Both the position numbers and the translations under genes were made by a program. 64,000 bases of DNA from Escherichia coli (GTDB lineage Bacteria > Pseudomonadota > Gammaproteobacteria > Enterobacterales > Enterobacteriaceae), in NCBI RefSeq assembly GCF_003334785.1, contig NZ_QOWV01000004.1; one strand, given 5' to 3'. The notes under the pieces were generated by a model. The model was given only the letters and a program-made list of their open reading frames with translations, was not told where the DNA came from and searched no databases. Below are positions 4,243-63,934 of this stretch, piece by piece; the first letter of the stretch is position 1; each line of letters opens with the position of its first letter.

Positions 4243-6624
4243 ATGTTAAAAAAAACGTTACTGGCCTACACCATTGGTTTTGCCTTTTCTCCCCCAGCCA
4301 ATGCAGATGGTATAGAGATTGCCGCTGTTGATTTTGATCGGGAAACATTAAAATCACTAGGTGTAGATCCTAATATATCGCATTATTTTTCCCGTTCAGC
4401 CCGTTTTTTGCCAGGTGAATATTCACTGATAGTATCAGTAAATGGCGAAAAAAAAGGCAACATTGCTACGCGCTTTGATGAAAATGGCGACATTTGTCTT
4501 GATCAGGCATTTCTGCAACAAGCCGGTTTAAAAATTCCTTCTGAAGAAAAAAATGGCTGTTACGACTATATATTGTCCTACCCGGGTACCACAATCACAC
4601 CATTACCTAACCAGGAAGCGTTAGATATTATCGTTTCACCACAGGCGATCATTCCCATAGGGTTGGATCTCACAAACGCAGCAACTGGTGGAACAGCTGC
4701 GCTGCTAAACTACTCTCTGATGAGCAGCCGTGCAGAATTTTCTAATGGGAGTTCGGACTACTCCCAGGCTGCACTTGAAGGCGGGATTAATATTAATGAC
4801 TGGATGTTACGCAGCCATCAGTTCCTTACACAAACAAATGGCACATTCAGTAACCAGAACTCGTCAACCTACCTTCAACGTACCTTTACAGATCTTAAAA
4901 CACTCATGCGAGCAGGTGAAGTTAACCTCAATAATAGCGTGTTGGAAGGAGCCAGTATTTACGGTATCGAAATCGCACCGGACAACGCATTGCAAACCAG
5001 CGGCAATGGTGTGCAAGTTACTGGTATAGCCAACACCTCTCAGGCTCGTGTCGAGATTCGTCAACAAGGAGTTTTAATTCATTCCATTCTGGTTCCTGCG
5101 GGCGCATTCACTATCCCTGATGTACCTGTTCGCAATGGTAATAGTGATCTTAATGTCACCGTTGTCGAAACAGACGGTAGTTCGCACAACTATATTGTTC
5201 CCTCCACCCTGTTTAATCAGCATGTAGAAAGCTTCCAGGGTTATCGCTTCGCGATAGGGCGGGTAGACGATGACTATGACGAATCACCTTGGGTAATTAG
5301 TGCATCGAGCGGATGGAATCTGACACGCTGGAGTGCAATGAACGGCGGCGTTATCGTAGCAGAAAATTATCAGGCGGCATCAATCCGGTCGAGTCTGGTT
5401 CCCCTGCCCGATTTAACAGTGAGCAGCCAAATTAGTACATCGCAGGATACGAAAGACTCACTGCAAGGACAGAAATATCGTCTTGACGCGAACTACAATC
5501 TCCCATTTTCACTTGGGCTAACAACCAGCCTCACTCGATCTGATCGCCATTATCGCGAACTGTCTGAAGCGATTGATGATGATTATACCGATCCGACTAA
5601 AAGCACTTATGCGCTTGGTTTAAACTGGTCTAACTCCATTCTGGGTGGTTTCAACATCAGTGGCTATAAAACATATAGTTACGACGGTGACAATGACTCA
5701 AGCAACCTTAATATTAACTGGAACAAAGCGTTCAAACACGCCACGGTTTCCGTCAACTGGCAGCATCAACTTAGTGCTTCAGAAAATAATGAAGACGATG
5801 GTGATCTGTTCTACGTCAACATCAGTATTCCATTTGGCAGATCAAACACCGCCACACTGTATACTCGCCATGACGATCATAAAACCCACTATGGTACTGG
5901 TGTCATGGGAGTCGTCTCAGATGAGATGTCCTACTATGTGAATGCTGAACGAGATCACGACGAACGTGAAACGAGCTTGAACGGCAGTATCAGTTCCAAT
6001 CTCCATTACACCCAAGTCAGCCTTGCCGCAGGAGCAAGCGGCAGTGATAGCCGTACTTACAACGGTACGATGTCAGGTGGTATTGCCGTACATGATCAGG
6101 GAGTGACCTTTTCACCGTGGACTATCAATGACACTTTCGCCATCGCAAAAATGGATAACAATATTGCAGGTGTCAGAATTACATCTCAGGCAGGCCCAGT
6201 ATGGACAGATTTTCGGGGTAATGCCGTCATTCCATCAATCCAGCCGTGGCGAACATCAGGAGTTGAGATCGATACCGCCAGCTTGCCAAAAAATGTCGAT
6301 ATCGGTAACGGCACAAAAATGATCAAACAAGGCCGTGGTGCAGTAGGGAAAGTCGGATTCAGTGCGATAACACAACGCCGTGCATTACTCAATATCACAC
6401 TTTCCGACGGCAAAAAACTGCCCAGAGGCGTTGCGATTGAAGATAGTGAAGGCAACTATCTGACAACATCAGTGGATGACGGTGTTGTATTCCTCAATAA
6501 CATCAAACCGGACATGGTGCTAGATATAAAAGATGAGCAGCAATCATGCCGTATTCACCTTACATTCCCAGAAGATGCACCAAAAGATGTGTTCTATGAG
6601 ACAGCAACAGGAGAGTGCCAATGA
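4243..6624 (+). CDS. yhcD: Outer-membrane fimbrial usher, about 793 aa
   Basis: Large ORF; start trimmed from TTG at 4225 to ATG at 4243 preceded by GGAG; usher-like size and composition. Confidence 0.85.
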   Translation: MLKKTLLAYTIGFAFSPPANADGIEIAAVDFDRETLKSLGVDPNISHYFSRSARFLPGEYSLIVSVNGEKKGNIATRFDENGDICLDQAFLQQAGLKIPSEEKNGCYDYILSYPGTTITPLPNQEALDIIVSPQAIIPIGLDLTNAATGGTAALLNYSLMSSRAEFSNGSSDYSQAALEGGININDWMLRSHQFLTQTNGTFSNQNSSTYLQRTFTDLKTLMRAGEVNLNNSVLEGASIYGIEIAPDNALQTSGNGVQVTGIANTSQARVEIRQQGVLIHSILVPAGAFTIPDVPVRNGNSDLNVTVVETDGSSHNYIVPSTLFNQHVESFQGYRFAIGRVDDDYDESPWVISASSGWNLTRWSAMNGGVIVAENYQAASIRSSLVPLPDLTVSSQISTSQDTKDSLQGQKYRLDANYNLPFSLGLTTSLTRSDRHYRELSEAIDDDYTDPTKSTYALGLNWSNSILGGFNISGYKTYSYDGDNDSSNLNINWNKAFKHATVSVNWQHQLSASENNEDDGDLFYVNISIPFGRSNTATLYTRHDDHKTHYGTGVMGVVSDEMSYYVNAERDHDERETSLNGSISSNLHYTQVSLAAGASGSDSRTYNGTMSGGIAVHDQGVTFSPWTINDTFAIAKMDNNIAGVRITSQAGPVWTDFRGNAVIPSIQPWRTSGVEIDTASLPKNVDIGNGTKMIKQGRGAVGKVGFSAITQRRALLNITLSDGKKLPRGVAIEDSEGNYLTTSVDDGVVFLNNIKPDMVLDIKDEQQSCRIHLTFPEDAPKDVFYETATGECQ

Positions 6625-32309: not shown

Positions 32310-32535
32310 GCTGCCGGATGCGGCGTGAACGCCCTATCCAGCCTACGGTTATGTTCCGGTTTGTAGGCCTGATAAGACGCACAGCGTCGCATCAGGCAAC
32401 GGCTGTCGGATGCGGCGTAAACGCCTTATCCGACCTACGGTTATGTTCCGTTTGTAGGCCTGATAAGACGCACAGCGTCGCATCAGGCAACGGCTGCCGG
32501 ATGCGGCGTGAACGCCCTATCCGACCTACGGTTAT
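32310..32535. repeat. BIME: cluster of about five REP palindromic units
   Basis: Alternating GCCGGATGCGGCGTGAACGCCTTATCCGGCCTAC-type and TGTAGGCCTGATAAGACGC...GCATCAGGCA-type units read directly. Confidence 0.85.
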
Positions 32536-49215: not shown

Positions 49216-50097
49216 ATGCCTTGGATCCAACTGAAACTGAACACCACCGGCGCGAACGCGGAAGATCTTAGCGATGCGCTGATGGAAGCGGGTGCCGTTT
49301 CTATCACTTTTCAGGATACCCACGATACGCCAGTATTTGAACCGCTGCCGGGCGAAACGCGCCTGTGGGGCGACACCGATGTGATTGGTCTGTTCGACGC
49401 TGAAACCGATATGAACGACGTGGTGGCGATTCTGGAAAACCATCCGCTGCTCGGCGCAGGCTTCGCGCATAAAATCGAACAACTAGAAGATAAAGACTGG
49501 GAGCGCGAATGGATGGATAATTTCCACCCGATGCGCTTTGGTGAACGACTGTGGATCTGCCCTAGCTGGCGTGATGTGCCGGACGAAAACGCCGTCAACG
49601 TGATGTTAGATCCAGGGCTGGCGTTTGGTACGGGTACCCATCCAACCACCTCTCTGTGCCTGCAATGGCTCGACAGCCTCGATTTAACCGGTAAAACAGT
49701 CATCGACTTTGGCTGTGGTTCCGGCATTCTGGCGATCGCGGCGCTGAAACTGGGTGCAGCAAAAGCCATTGGTATTGATATCGATCCGCAGGCGATTCAG
49801 GCCAGCCGCGATAACGCCGAACGTAATGGCGTTTCTGACCGTCTGGAACTCTACTTACCGAAAGATCAGCCAGAAGAAATGAAAGCCGACGTGGTGGTCG
49901 CTAACATCCTTGCAGGCCCATTACGTGAACTGGCACCGTTAATCAGCGTCCTGCCGGTTTCAGGCGGTTTGCTGGGCCTTTCCGGTATTCTGGCAAGCCA
50001 GGCAGAGAGCGTTTGTGAAGCTTATGCCGATAGCTTCGCACTGGACCCGGTCGTGGAAAAAGAAGAGTGGTGCCGTATTACCGGTCGTAAGAATTAA
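49216..50097 (+). CDS. prmA: Ribosomal protein L11 methyltransferase, 293 aa
   Basis: [10 protein letters not shown]...; SAM-binding [10 protein letters not shown] motif. Confidence 0.9.
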
Positions 50098-50354
50098 CCT
50101 TCGCATCGCCGTAGGGTGACGCGGGGCGAAGTGCGAGCAAGCTCACAAAAGGCACGTAAATTTGCCGATTATTTACGCAAATTTGCGTGCCAAAATTTTC
50201 ATTCATAAAGAAAAATTGAGAACTTACTCAAATTTCTTTGAGTGTAAATTTTAGTCACTATTTTCTAATATGATGATTTTTATGAGTAATTATCGCACCA
50301 CGCTCATTTTAAATGCAATTCTTTGATCCATCTCAGAGGATTGGTCAAAGTTTG

Positions 50355-50392
50355 GCCTTTCATCTCGTGCAAAAAATGCGTAATATACGCCG
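50355..50392 (+). promoter_or_regulatory. dusB-fis promoter (-35 TTCATC, 16-nt spacer, -10 TAATAT, GC-rich discriminator)
   Basis: Hexamers and GCCGCC discriminator read directly about 40 bp upstream of dusB ATG; A/T tracts upstream consistent with Fis/IHF sites. Confidence 0.55.
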
Positions 50393-50425
50393 CCTTGCAG
50401 TCACAGTATGGTCATTTCTTAACTC

Positions 50426-51391
50426 ATGCGCATCGGACAATATCAGCTCAGAAATCGCCTGATCGCAGCGCCCATGGCTGGCATTACAGACAGACCTTTT
50501 CGGACGTTGTGCTACGAGATGGGAGCCGGATTGACAGTATCCGAGATGATGTCTTCTAACCCACAGGTTTGGGAAAGCGACAAATCTCGTTTACGGATGG
50601 TGCACATTGATGAACCCGGTATTCGCACCGTGCAAATTGCTGGTAGCGATCCGAAAGAAATGGCAGATGCAGCACGTATTAACGTGGAAAGCGGTGCCCA
50701 GATTATTGATATCAATATGGGTTGCCCGGCTAAAAAAGTGAATCGCAAGCTCGCAGGTTCAGCCCTCTTGCAGTACCCGGATGTCGTTAAATCGATCCTT
50801 ACCGAGGTCGTCAATGCAGTGGACGTTCCTGTTACCCTGAAGATTCGCACCGGCTGGGCACCGGAACACCGTAACTGCGAAGAGATTGCCCAACTGGCTG
50901 AAGACTGTGGCATTCAGGCTCTGACCATTCATGGCCGTACACGCGCCTGTTTGTTCAATGGAGAAGCTGAGTACGACAGTATTCGGGCAGTTAAGCAGAA
51001 AGTTTCCATTCCGGTTATCGCGAATGGCGACATTACTGACCCGCTTAAAGCCAGAGCTGTGCTCGACTATACAGGGGCGGATGCCCTGATGATAGGCCGC
51101 GCAGCTCAGGGAAGACCCTGGATCTTTCGGGAAATCCAGCATTATCTGGACACTGGGGAGTTGCTGCCCCCGCTGCCTTTGGCAGAGGTTAAGCGCTTGC
51201 TTTGCGCGCACGTTCGGGAACTGCATGACTTTTATGGTCCGGCAAAAGGGTACCGAATTGCACGTAAACACGTTTCCTGGTATCTCCAGGAACACGCTCC
51301 AAATGACCAGTTTCGGCGCACATTCAACGCCATTGAGGATGCCAGCGAACAGCTGGAGGCGTTGGAGGCATACTTCGAAAATTTTGCGTAA
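50426..51391 (+). CDS. dusB: tRNA-dihydrouridine synthase B, 321 aa
   Basis: [26 protein letters not shown]...; TIM-barrel flavoenzyme motifs. Confidence 0.9.
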
Positions 51392-51416
51392 ACAGAAATA
51401 AAGAGCTGACAGAACT

Positions 51417-51713
51417 ATGTTCGAACAACGCGTAAATTCTGACGTACTGACCGTTTCTACCGTTAACTCTCAGGATCAGGTAACCCAAAAACCCCTGCGT
51501 GACTCGGTTAAACAGGCACTGAAGAACTATTTTGCTCAACTGAATGGTCAGGATGTGAATGACCTCTATGAGCTGGTACTGGCTGAAGTAGAACAGCCCC
51601 TGTTGGACATGGTGATGCAATACACCCGTGGTAACCAGACCCGTGCTGCGCTGATGATGGGCATCAACCGTGGTACGCTGCGTAAAAAATTGAAAAAATA
51701 CGGCATGAACTAA
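51417..51713 (+). CDS. fis: Nucleoid-associated DNA-binding protein Fis, 98 aa
   Basis: [45 protein letters not shown]... Confidence 0.97.
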
Positions 51714-51741
51714 TTCAGGTTAGCTAAATGCTTGATTAAAA

Positions 51742-51776
51742 AGGCGCTACTCGGCATGGGGAAGCGCCTTTTTTAT
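51742..51776 (+). terminator. Intrinsic terminator after fis
   Basis: GGCGCT...AGCGCC hairpin followed by TTTTTT. Confidence 0.7.
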
Positions 51777-51798
51777 AGGTGTCACAAAGGGAGTGACC

Positions 51799-52683
51799 AT
51801 GAGAACAGGATGTGAACCGACCCGGTTTGGTAATGAAGCTAAGACCATTATTCACGGTGATGCGCTTGCCGAACTTAAAAAGATCCCCGCCGAAAGTGTC
51901 GATCTGATCTTTGCCGACCCACCATATAACATCGGTAAAAATTTTGATGGTCTGATCGAAGCCTGGAAAGAAGATCTGTTTATCGACTGGCTGTTTGAAG
52001 TGATTGCAGAGTGCCACCGCGTTCTGAAAAAGCAGGGCAGCATGTACATCATGAACAGTACGGAAAACATGCCCTTTATCGATCTCCAGTGCCGCAAGCT
52101 TTTTACCATCAAAAGTCGCATCGTCTGGTCATATGACAGTTCTGGAGTGCAGGCGAAAAAACACTACGGCTCCATGTACGAACCCATCCTGATGATGGTG
52201 AAAGACGCAAAGAACTACACATTCAACGGTGATGCTATTCTGGTAGAAGCCAAAACCGGATCGCAGCGCGCGTTGATCGATTATCGCAAAAATCCTCCAC
52301 AGCCTTACAATCATCAAAAAGTACCGGGTAACGTTTGGGATTTTCCGCGCGTGCGTTATTTGATGGATGAATATGAAAACCACCCGACGCAAAAACCGGA
52401 AGCCTTACTGAAACGCATTATTCTCGCCTCTTCCAACCCAGGCGATATCGTTCTCGACCCGTTTGCTGGTAGCTTTACTACCGGTGCCGTAGCCATCGCC
52501 AGCGGACGAAAATTCATTGGTATTGAGATCAACAGCGAGTACATCAAAATGGGGCTTCGACGGCTGGATGTCGCGTCGCATTACTCTGCGGAAGAACTGG
52601 CGAAAGTGAAAAAAAGAAAGACCGGCAACCTGTCAAAACGAAGCCGGTTAAGCGAAGTTGACCCCGATCTCATTACAAAGTAA
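51799..52683 (+). CDS. yhdJ: Orphan N6-adenine DNA methyltransferase, 294 aa
   Basis: Start trimmed from GTG to ATG 51799; motif IV DPPY and SAM-binding FxGxG in translation. Confidence 0.85.
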   Translation: MRTGCEPTRFGNEAKTIIHGDALAELKKIPAESVDLIFADPPYNIGKNFDGLIEAWKEDLFIDWLFEVIAECHRVLKKQGSMYIMNSTENMPFIDLQCRKLFTIKSRIVWSYDSSGVQAKKHYGSMYEPILMMVKDAKNYTFNGDAILVEAKTGSQRALIDYRKNPPQPYNHQKVPGNVWDFPRVRYLMDEYENHPTQKPEALLKRIILASSNPGDIVLDPFAGSFTTGAVAIASGRKFIGIEINSEYIKMGLRRLDVASHYSAEELAKVKKRKTGNLSKRSRLSEVDPDLITK

Positions 52684-52766
52684 AGGATGTGTAAGCCTGG
52701 TTTTCAGATTATTCATTTCGTGTATATTTCCTGCCAGACTTGGTTAAACATGCACAGGCTCAGGTA

Positions 52767-52946
52767 ATGATTCGCAAGTATTGGTGGCTCGTCGTTTTCG
52801 CTGTCTTCGTTTTTCTGTTTGATACTTTACTGATGCAGTGGATTGAACTGCTGGCAACAGAAACAGACAAATGCCGCAATATGAACTCAGTTAATCCACT
52901 AAAACTGGTTAACTGTGACGAACTGAATTTTCAGGACAGAATGTGA
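52767..52946 (+). CDS. yhdU: Small membrane protein YhdU (DUF2556), 59 aa
   Basis: Start trimmed to MIRKYWWLVVFAVFVFLF; single TM helix. Confidence 0.6.
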   Translation: MIRKYWWLVVFAVFVFLFDTLLMQWIELLATETDKCRNMNSVNPLKLVNCDELNFQDRM

Positions 52947-52948
52947 AT

Positions 52949-53611
52949 TTACATGACACTTAATTCATTCGTTTGATGAATTAATTTCGTTATGTTTTCA
53001 TCTGGCATGAACATTCTTAATACGTTATCGACCAGAGCGGGGGCTTGTTTATAAAGATCATAACCCGCCATATTCATTAACCAGTTTTGAACAATTCCGC
53101 TGAAGGCACCATCAATAATAATCATCACAACATCTAAATCGAGGTTATTTGCTACACAACCTTGTTGCTGACACGCCTGCAATACTTCGCGGAGAGTCTG
53201 CGGATTAAAGCCCATCTTTTCGCGTATCACTCCCTCGGCCAGCATCTCATCATTAAATTCACATTTGTGATATAAGATTTTCAGCAACGCCTGCTGGCGG
53301 GGAATTTTGGCAATATATTGCAAGCCGACAATCAATTTTTCACGCAATTGTTGAAACGGGTCATGCTCTAATCCAGCCGTCAAGTGTTCCTGGATTAACT
53401 CCCGCAATGAAGGCTGTTGCAACCACATCTCATTAAACAGTTGAGTCTTGTTTTCGAAGTGCCAGTAGATAGCGCCACGCGTAACGTTAGCGGCGTCGGC
53501 AATGTCGTTGAGCGTCGTCTTGCTTACGCCATGCTGCGCAAACTGGGCGATGGCAGTTTCAATCAGTTCTTGCCGGGTCTTCAGAGCTTCGGCTTTGGTT
53601 CTTTTTGCCAT
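52949..53611 (-). CDS. envR: TetR-family repressor of acrEF (EnvR/AcrS), 220 aa
   Basis: N-terminal TetR HTH (LNDIADAANVTRGAIYWHF); divergent from acrEF. Confidence 0.9.
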   Translation of the reverse strand: MAKRTKAEALKTRQELIETAIAQFAQHGVSKTTLNDIADAANVTRGAIYWHFENKTQLFNEMWLQQPSLRELIQEHLTAGLEHDPFQQLREKLIVGLQYIAKIPRQQALLKILYHKCEFNDEMLAEGVIREKMGFNPQTLREVLQACQQQGCVANNLDLDVVMIIIDGAFSGIVQNWLMNMAGYDLYKQAPALVDNVLRMFMPDENITKLIHQTNELSVM

Positions 53612-54009
53612 GATTAATTATTCAGGAAATAAATATATTCGACACAGAGTGAGAAAATAGCGAAGGTTAATCTATCACCTAATGTGTATTTATACGAGAG
53701 GCTAATATTGAGTTGCTATAAATCGTTAAATAAATAATATATATTATTTACCTAAGATACATTCACTACATCAATATATATTTCAATTTACGAGGTTTTA
53801 ATTCTGCCTCTTTCAACCCGCGTCAAAATAAAACAGTAGAATATTAATCTTTTTTTGTGTTTATGTGCCTTGAGATGCCTGTATTCATAACTATTCCTTA
53901 CATCGACGAATGATAATTTGTAGGATAGCGAACTGTATTTTTCTTTCTGCGAGTTAACGCGTTGCCTTTTTGGGTAAATAACGCGCTTTTGGTTTTTTGA
54001 GGAATAGTA

Positions 54010-63569: not shown

Positions 63570-63689
63570 ATGCCTGGCAGTTCCCTACTCTCGCATGGGG
63601 AGACCCCACACTACCATCGGCGCTACGGCGTTTCACTTCTGAGTTCGGCATGGGGTCAGGTGGGACCACCGCGCTACTGCCGCCAGACA
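63570..63689 (-). rRNA. rrfF: 5S ribosomal RNA (distal copy of rrnD), 120 nt
   Basis: Minus-strand match to E. coli 5S; carries U at position 3 (UGUCUGG) and GGCAGUAGCGC variant relative to rrfD. Confidence 0.9.
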
Positions 63690-63726
63690 AATTCTTTTCT
63701 AATCTGCCGAACTTTAACCTAAAAAG

Positions 63727-63802
63727 TGGTGCTGATACCCAGAGTCGAACTGGGGACCTCACCCTTACCAAGGGTGCGCTCTACCAACTGAGCCATATCA
63801 GC
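63727..63802 (-). tRNA. thrV: tRNA-Thr (anticodon GGU), 76 nt with encoded CCA
   Basis: Minus-strand GCTGATATGGCTCAGTTGGTAGAGCGCACCCTTGGTAAGGGTGAGGTCCCCAGTTCGACTCTGGGTATCAGCACCA. Confidence 0.9.
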
Positions 63803-63814
63803 ACGCTAAATTTG

Positions 63815-63934
63815 ATGCCTGGCAGTTCCCTACTCTCGCATGGGGAGACCCCACACTACCATCGGCGCTACGGCGTTTCACTTCTGAGTTCGGCATGGGG
63901 TCAGGTGGGACCACCGCGCTACGGCCGCCAGGCA
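63815..63934 (-). rRNA. rrfD: 5S ribosomal RNA (proximal copy of rrnD), 120 nt
   Basis: Minus-strand exact-looking match to canonical E. coli 5S (UGCCUGGCGGCCGUAGCGCGGUGG...). Confidence 0.9.

Follow-up and report, generated by a model that had tools for sequence, protein, structure and literature searches.

The gene at positions 51799-52683 (+ strand) of the 64-kb stretch of Escherichia coli DNA analyzed here (the window) is, judged by its sequence, the already characterized yhdJ of E. coli K-12, which encodes the beta-class N6-adenine DNA methyltransferase M.EcoKII. Comparison with its relatives indicates that YhdJ is best described as an orphaned methylase of the M.EcoT22I/AvaIII/NsiI type, a better label than "CcrM-like". 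When the M.EcoKII identity is joined to an origin from an EcoT22I-type system and to expression by read-through from fis, the reading as a whole is very probably correct. Earlier publications already cover the gene, the site it methylates, its silence in K-12 and the lack of a phenotype, and what is added here amounts to minor refinements, namely that plasmid-borne EcoT22I methylases are its sister group, that the FxGxF loop is family-wide, that the terminator junction is invariant and that the cognate nuclease is rare in E. coli. The locus is of little value as a discovery, and its remaining value is practical and evolutionary.

Identity and published activity of YhdJ

The yhdJ ORF begins with an ATG at 51799, ends with a TAA at 52681-52683 and encodes 294 amino acids. 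A nucleotide comparison of 1061 nt that included yhdJ showed 100% identity to MG1655 and to many other E. coli, and in the identical genomes the gene is annotated as yhdJ, adenine-specific DNA-methyltransferase. The MG1655 copy lies at NC_000913.3 3411653-3412537, and no difference was found from M.EcoKII/YhdJ of that strain (b3262; NF008572/PRK11524) in sequence, position or neighbors. The ORF is real, and the coordinates and name given to it in an earlier reading made without database searches (the sequence-only reading) were correct. Pfam PF01555 (N6_N4_Mtase) matched YhdJ residues 34-251 essentially over the full length of the model (positions 1-218 of 221; E = 3e-64), the NCBIfam YhdJ equivalog NF008572 scored 589.5 bits against a cut-off of 292 across positions 1-294 of 294, which places the protein in that family, and the PADLOC MTase_II model PDLC03299 gave 517 bits (E = 3.7e-156). 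The Pfam and NCBIfam scores rule out a chance ORF. A GTG codon is present in frame two codons upstream of the ATG; the start used by RefSeq is the ATG.

When overexpressed, M.EcoKII methylates the second A of ATGCAT and protects against NsiI (PMC4444293; PMC13337833; PMC9150344). In wild-type K-12 the gene is silent and ATGCAT methylation is undetected by SMRT sequencing (PMC4444293; PMC9150344), genomic DNA is cut by NsiI, and deletion of yhdJ, a non-essential gene, produces no phenotype (PMC4444293). The sequence-only reading had stated that YhdJ methylates ATGCAT and is barely expressed in the laboratory, in agreement with these three reports, which also describe yhdJ as conserved across almost all E. 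coli. Among 84 E. coli strains yhdJ was prevalent and the number of core methylated ATGCAT sites was zero (PMC13360123). In S. Typhimurium, YhdJ is natively active, with ~513 methylated sites, and is the sole ATGCAT methylase, since a delta-yhdJ strain has zero methylated ATGCAT sites; it is the most condition-variable methylase of that organism, with ATGCAT methylation raised in SPI-2 medium and in a metJ mutant, and the transcriptome and virulence are almost unaffected by it (PMC9239280). The same study found a 151* truncated yhdJ to be prevalent in S. Paratyphi A. In S. enterica 4/74, the number of methylated ATGCAT sites is higher in mid-exponential phase than in late stationary phase, contrary to the trend for Dam and Dcm (bioRxiv 10.64898/2026.01.27.702048).

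Catalytic motifs and comparison with CcrM, Dam and Dcm

Motifs were placed by alignment to the solved structures of CcrM, MboIIA, RsrI, DpnA and 8urk. The catalytic, adenine-binding motif IV, DPPY, was found where the sequence-only reading had seen it, at aa 40-43 (51916-51927, + strand; regular expression on the translation), aligned to the DPPY of CcrM (6pbd) and 8urk, and F[AV]DPPYN was invariant in 81 of 81 aligned relatives among the matches listed. An HPTQKP block at aa 195-200 (52381-52398, + strand), on the 5' side of motif I, aligned identically to CcrM residues 197-202; HP[TS]QKP occurred in 80 of the 81 relatives among the matches listed, the last sequence being cut off. Motif IV (from residue 40) precedes motif I (from residue 220), the permuted order of the beta class.

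The SAM-binding loop required a correction. The sequence-only reading had described an FxGxG SAM pocket, and the aligned loop is indeed present as DPFAGSFTTG at aa 220-229 (52456-52485, + strand), opposite DPFFGVGTTG of CcrM, but its pattern is FxGxF, and a regular-expression search of the whole translation found no literal FxGxG anywhere in the protein. FAGSF of YhdJ aligned to FFGVG of CcrM and to FMGSG of MboIIA, DpnA and 8urk, so the loop occupies the FxGxG position of the solved enzymes with the last glycine replaced by phenylalanine. DPFxG[ST]F[ST]T was present in 80 of 80 relatives covering motif I among the matches listed, the majority of which have a nuclease gene as partner. Because all 80 relatives share the substitution and overexpressed YhdJ is active, the phenylalanine is a family trait and not a defect. 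Catalytic-motif substitutions, which the sequence-only reading had said would count against a methylase, are in this sense absent in any form that matters. YhdJ would carry out SAM-dependent N6-methylation of the second adenine in the palindrome ATGCAT, and every motif found here is consistent with a beta-class m6A methylase acting on both ATGCAT strands, as shown by others.

The best solved relatives of YhdJ were CcrM (6pbd, E = 3.6e-33), the methyltransferase 8urk, MboIIA and RsrI. CcrM was thus the top match among solved structures, and Broadbent et al. 2007 use "CcrM-like" in their title, as given in PMC4444293; both points would favor reading YhdJ as an orthologue of CcrM with a cell-cycle regulatory role. 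YhdJ does share with Caulobacter CcrM the beta-class fold, the motif order, DPPY and HPTQKPEALL. However, the NCBIfam CcrM equivalog NF050803 gave only 135.4 bits against a cut-off of 830, and YhdJ has 294 amino acids against 366 in CcrM, with an alignment that stops at CcrM residue 267, so that the C-terminal extension is missing. The two enzymes differ further in motif I (FxGxF against FxGxG) and in target (ATGCAT against GANTC), YhdJ is non-essential (PMC4444293), and it is far closer to M.EcoT22I, with 76% identity. Since the cut-off is failed, the C-terminal domain is missing and the target differs, YhdJ is not a CcrM orthologue, a proposal to which we assign almost no probability.

Like Dam and Dcm, YhdJ is solitary, chromosomal and near-universal in E. 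coli. Dam and Dcm are expressed and modify almost every one of their sites, whereas YhdJ methylation is undetectable in K-12 and leaves no core sites in the 84 strains. Like Dcm, which has a plasmid-borne R-M relative in EcoRII, YhdJ has plasmid-borne R-M relatives. YhdJ is not known to function in repair, replication or regulation.

Search for a cognate nuclease

Relatives of yhdJ were collected in a scan of one genome per species, which returned at least 80 loci, and all ORFs of at least 80 aa in these loci were clustered. Among the matches listed, 25 loci were enteric (Escherichia, Citrobacter and Salmonella; 75-98% identity), with fis upstream in 25 of 25 and acrS downstream in 24 of 25, and ORF clustering revealed no further conserved partner gene at them. 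Of the 56 non-enteric loci among the matches listed (58-72% identity), which came from Pseudoalteromonas, Marinobacterium, Nostoc, Anabaena, Pseudomonas, many Bacteroidota and others, 48 had an adjacent nuclease gene of ~343-398 aa, a partner seen at 0 of the 25 enteric loci. This partner was convergent and overlapping in gammaproteobacteria and cyanobacteria and in tandem in Bacteroidota, again among the matches listed. It matched PADLOC REase_II PDLC03455 (E = 1e-61 to 1e-157); neither Pfam nor NCBIfam gave a match, and PADLOC alone recognized the family. Its homologs include a protein of 343 aa from E. coli that shares 99.4% identity with an ORF of plasmid pEC22. The plasmid is described as "coding for MR.EcoT22I" in Elhai et al. 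1994, as quoted in PMC5052281. The commercial enzyme EcoT22I cuts ATGCAT. As the partner family includes the pEC22 (EcoT22I) ORF, it is the ATGCAT nuclease family, and the specificity of YhdJ fits that of its relatives.

The sequence-only reading had stated that no restriction endonuclease gene adjoins yhdJ and had proposed a search for a distant one. None was found next to yhdJ or elsewhere in the 64-kb window. At least 40 members of the nuclease family gave a best tblastn E-value of 0.07 against the window, a family HMM run on the six-frame translation gave E ~1, and R.EcoT22I and C.EcoT22I gave no tblastn match at E <= 1. No remnant of a nuclease or C gene was seen in the window or at the 25-26 enteric chromosomal loci among the matches listed. 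In 5426 complete E. coli genomes the C and R genes were present in three, each time on a plasmid (4.4-6.2 kb) and in no case on the chromosome. The yhdJ locus therefore contains the methylase of an EcoT22I-type system, has neither an adjacent nuclease gene nor a controller (C) HTH gene and, lacking R and C, is not an R-M system.

YhdJ could still be the methylase half of a working R-M system with its nuclease encoded elsewhere in the genome, given that its closest relatives are genuine R-M methylases and that the authors of PMC9239280 speculated about a role in phage defense. The absence of any similarity to the nuclease family in the window and the confinement of C and R to three plasmid-bearing genomes speak against this, and the viability of K-12 with unmethylated, NsiI-cut ATGCAT (PMC4444293) is incompatible with an active cognate nuclease. 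Nor is ATGCAT avoided in the window, where 9 sites were observed and 10.8 expected. We consider a working system of this kind extremely improbable. Avoidance of ATGCAT was also considered as a trace of past restriction and was rejected, the ratio of observed to expected sites being the same as for the control TTGCAA, a comparison that has low power in 64 kb. No ATGCAT site lies within 50000-54000.

Origin of the chromosomal gene

The pEC22 methylase was 76% identical to YhdJ over aa 1-267 without a gap, and blastn detected DNA homology to the M.EcoT22I gene of pEC22 at 51847-52622 (+ strand; 70.2%, no indels). In neighbor-joining trees of ~258 columns built from the matches listed, the three plasmid methylases were sister to the chromosomal enteric clade in 100 of 100 bootstraps, the chromosomal enteric yhdJ genes were monophyletic in 98 of 100, and the next branches were marine gammaproteobacteria and cyanobacteria. 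M.EcoT22I, carried by pEC22 and by small ColE1-type plasmids of E. coli, Klebsiella and Enterobacter, has the same FxGxF motif I as YhdJ. It differs in having 307 aa, an AT-rich gene and another C-terminal tail; its gene converges with that of the 343-aa nuclease, the two sharing a 29-nt overlap, and an HTH controller gene precedes the nuclease gene, whereas YhdJ has 294 aa, no R or C partner and a fixed chromosomal site. The GC3 of chromosomal yhdJ was 0.54, like that of fis and dusB, against 0.32 for the plasmid M gene and 0.30 for the plasmid R gene.

The orphan status proposed by the sequence-only reading holds, with no nuclease nearby, and the gene has the other marks of an orphan methyltransferase: a fixed site between fis and acrS, a host-like GC3 and strong constraint. 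Pairwise dN/dS among the yhdJ genes of Escherichia, Citrobacter and Salmonella was 0.04-0.12, at synonymous distances that reach saturation. Of the 5426 complete E. coli genomes, 5418 contained yhdJ, at a coverage of at least 80% in 5388 (at least 99.3%).

Together, the tree and the gene contexts suggest that yhdJ is a solitary chromosomal descendant of an EcoT22I/AvaIII/NsiI-type Type II R-M methylase. The simplest reading would be a single old capture of such a methylase behind the fis terminator, a view based on distance trees and on loci among the matches listed. The capture would date back to the ancestor shared by Escherichia, Citrobacter and Salmonella, with insertion between the fis terminator and yhdU/acrS; the nuclease and controller would have been missing from the start or lost later, and the gene would then have been inherited vertically under purifying selection. 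Its base composition is now host-like. The sole fis locus without yhdJ (L091) carries phage-like genes after the terminator and, considered as a clean "empty site", was uninformative.

The fis-yhdJ junction and expression of yhdJ

Around yhdJ the genes run prmA, dusB, fis, yhdJ, yhdU, acrS (opposite strand, convergent) and acrEF, which together with the sequence identity marks the window as K-12 chromosome. The upstream neighbor fis (51417-51713, + strand; stop codon 51711-51713) is the last gene of the dusB-fis operon, and the downstream neighbor yhdU (52767-52946, + strand; DUF2556, 59 aa) starts 83 nt past the yhdJ stop codon. An intrinsic terminator of fis lies at 51738-51774 (+ strand) and consists of an 11+3 bp hairpin (51738-51773) whose 3' arm takes in part of a 6-T tract (51769-51774). 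The intergenic RNA folded at -29.5 kcal/mol (z = -3.5), and 0 of 200 shuffles folded as well. A consensus terminator scan missed this element because the inner stem lengthens the "loop" beyond the limit of the scan. The coordinates and the RNA fold thus confirmed that yhdJ is placed directly after the fis terminator, with fis and yhdU as its neighbors, as the sequence-only reading had it.

The yhdJ ATG follows the last T of the terminator by 24 nt and is preceded at 5 nt by a Shine-Dalgarno sequence, AAGGGAG (51787-51793, + strand). A small hairpin with a 5-bp stem (GTCAC, 51781-51785; GTGAC, 51793-51797) holds most of this SD in its loop and is conserved only within Escherichia among the matches listed. 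The terminator hairpin was virtually invariant, and the spacing the same, at the 25 Escherichia, Citrobacter and Salmonella loci among the matches listed; only the short yhdJ leader varies between genera, and the Salmonella SD is weaker. The gap in activity between the silent E. coli gene and the active Salmonella one was also considered as an effect of the terminator or the leader; this was set aside, since hairpin and spacing are the same and the differences in the 24-nt leader do not explain it. No sigma-70-like site with at least 9 of 12 matches was found between fis and yhdJ (+ strand, 51400-51800) in a simple consensus scan, which weak or non-sigma-70 promoters may escape.

The most likely source of yhdJ mRNA would be polymerases that pass the fis terminator, because the ATG follows the T-tract at a distance of just 24 nt and the scan detected no promoter. 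Such read-through would make yhdJ expression low and would tie it to fis, and so to outgrowth and early exponential phase, and it would account for the near-silence of yhdJ in K-12. Whether expression follows growth phase through fis, as the sequence-only reading had asked, is thus a reasonable question. Support comes from the geometry of the locus, from the absent promoter, from the up-regulation of both yhdJ and fis in lag phase, in young E. coli cells (PMC2780417), and from ATGCAT methylation in Salmonella being biased toward exponential phase. That read-through is the main source of yhdJ mRNA has, in our estimate, an even or slightly lower chance of being right. The silence of K-12 is not explained by terminator geometry alone, since terminator and spacing are the same in the active Salmonella, and the rise of methylation in SPI-2 medium and in the metJ mutant points to SAM supply or site accessibility and away from fis-linked transcription. 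The tight spacing behind an invariant terminator nevertheless gives a concrete and cheap route to explaining the expression pattern of yhdJ.

Alternatively, yhdJ, possibly together with yhdU, might have a condition-specific promoter of its own that is independent of fis and responds, for example, to envelope stress via CpxR. A table of CpxR-regulated genes lists both yhdJ and yhdU (PMC9600279), which hints at separate control, and a consensus scan found no terminator-like site between the two genes. Gerganova et al. observed no significant change in yhdJ expression when a dusB-fis deletion was compared with its control (PMC4751926), a result in favor of a fis-independent promoter and against coupling to fis; this comparison is not clean, since in the control strain a cat cassette sits between fis and yhdJ. 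An own promoter would have to fit into the mere 24 nt between T-tract and ATG, where no promoter-like site was detected, or into DNA on the 5' side of the terminator, which is strongly constrained fis coding sequence. On balance we regard such a promoter as rather unlikely.

Conservation of yhdJ

The silence of yhdJ in K-12 (PMC4444293; PMC9150344), the lack of core ATGCAT methylation in 84 strains (PMC13360123) and the phenotype-free deletions in E. coli and Salmonella (PMC4444293; PMC9239280) could be taken to mean that yhdJ is a relic in decay, left silent after its R-M system was lost and now without function. Truncated alleles occur occasionally, with a stop at codon 286 in one locus (L096) and the 151* allele of S. 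Paratyphi A (PMC9239280). A relic is hard to reconcile with the dN/dS values across Escherichia, Citrobacter and Salmonella, with catalytic motifs that are intact in every enteric copy among the matches listed, with the near-universal presence of the gene in complete E. coli genomes, or with an enzyme that is active when expressed (PMC4444293) and natively active in Salmonella (PMC9239280). We consider decay very unlikely.

A speculative reading is that yhdJ is retained because it acts as a "vaccine" toward plasmid addiction modules of the EcoT22I type and is expressed only in a short Fis-linked pulse of read-through at outgrowth. If so, transient or low ATGCAT methylation would blunt post-segregational killing or entry restriction by AT-rich C-R-M plasmids, in parallel with the relation proposed for Dcm and EcoRII. 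The idea is compatible with the occurrence of the nearest relatives of yhdJ on plasmid systems in E. coli, Klebsiella and Enterobacter and with strong purifying selection on a gene that has no known phenotype, and we give it a small chance of being correct. The existence of plasmids with a cognate-type nuclease in enterobacteria suggests one testable reason for the conservation of yhdJ.

Methylase relatives and their nuclease partners

On small ColE1/Rop-type plasmids, the EcoT22I-type system was found as a compact module consisting of a controller gene (C; HTH), a nuclease gene (R; 343 aa) and a convergent methylase gene (M; 307 aa). The module occupies positions 4340-6475 of the EcoT22I plasmid pEC22 (L083; NC_025058.1), also occurs in loci L082, L084, and L086, and is carried by plasmids whose hosts are E. 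coli, Klebsiella, and Enterobacter. At their 3′ ends, the plasmid R and M genes share 29 nt. On pEC22, the sole annotation of the R gene is "hypothetical protein"; the plasmid M gene bears the annotation "yhdJ", and its product is 76% identical to chromosomal YhdJ.

Among the matches listed, 8 of the 56 non-enteric relatives of yhdJ had no neighboring ORF that clustered with the nuclease family (PADLOC REase_II PDLC03455), namely those at loci L028, L031, L032, L035, L055, L064, L079, and L080. The nuclease ORF was split or shortened in several other loci (L050, L056, L060, L068). These nuclease-less and split-nuclease loci may represent further independent orphaning events, or they may be assembly artefacts.

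Motif I and the C-terminal tail of YhdJ

Motif I of YhdJ (aa 220-229; window 52456-52485) reads FxGxF in place of the textbook FxGxG. The same FxGxF was present in all ATGCAT-family relatives that covered motif I among the matches listed (80/80). By contrast, where YhdJ has Phe, Gly is found in the five solved beta-class enzymes that match it best. The tail of YhdJ past residue 267 is not shared with M.EcoT22I. In a natural E. coli yhdJ allele (L096 3883-4740; GCA_037380685.2), codon 286 is a premature stop, leaving a protein of 285 aa whose basic C-terminal tail lacks its final 9 residues.

The fis-yhdJ-acrS region

The gene following yhdJ is yhdU (window 52767-52946, + strand), which encodes a 59-aa DUF2556 predicted membrane peptide. 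No terminator-like site was found between yhdJ and yhdU, and a weak promoter-like site lies between them at 52701-52728. Since both genes are listed in a table of CpxR-regulated genes (PMC9600279), they may be co-transcribed. In the window, only 2 nt separate the yhdU stop (52946) from the acrS stop (52949), whereas Salmonella-like loci (L089 and L092-L094; 5165-7264) carry a gene for a 699-aa MHYT-GGDEF-EAL protein between yhdU and the acrS/envR homolog.

At locus L091 (3798-7297; GCA_043358095.1), the Fis protein is identical, the fis terminator is the same, and yhdJ is absent. The T-tract is directly followed by opposite-strand genes, one of them encoding a 765-aa tape-measure-like protein, an arrangement suggestive of a prophage or island here.

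Elsewhere in the window, two adjacent naRNA4 (CssrE) matches on the minus strand (32366-32526; Rfam, 77 and 71 bits) are a REP/BIME-type repeat cluster. At the end of the window, a minus-strand tRNA-Thr (GGT) gene between two 5S rRNA genes (63572-63932) is the 3′ end of the K-12 rrnD operon.
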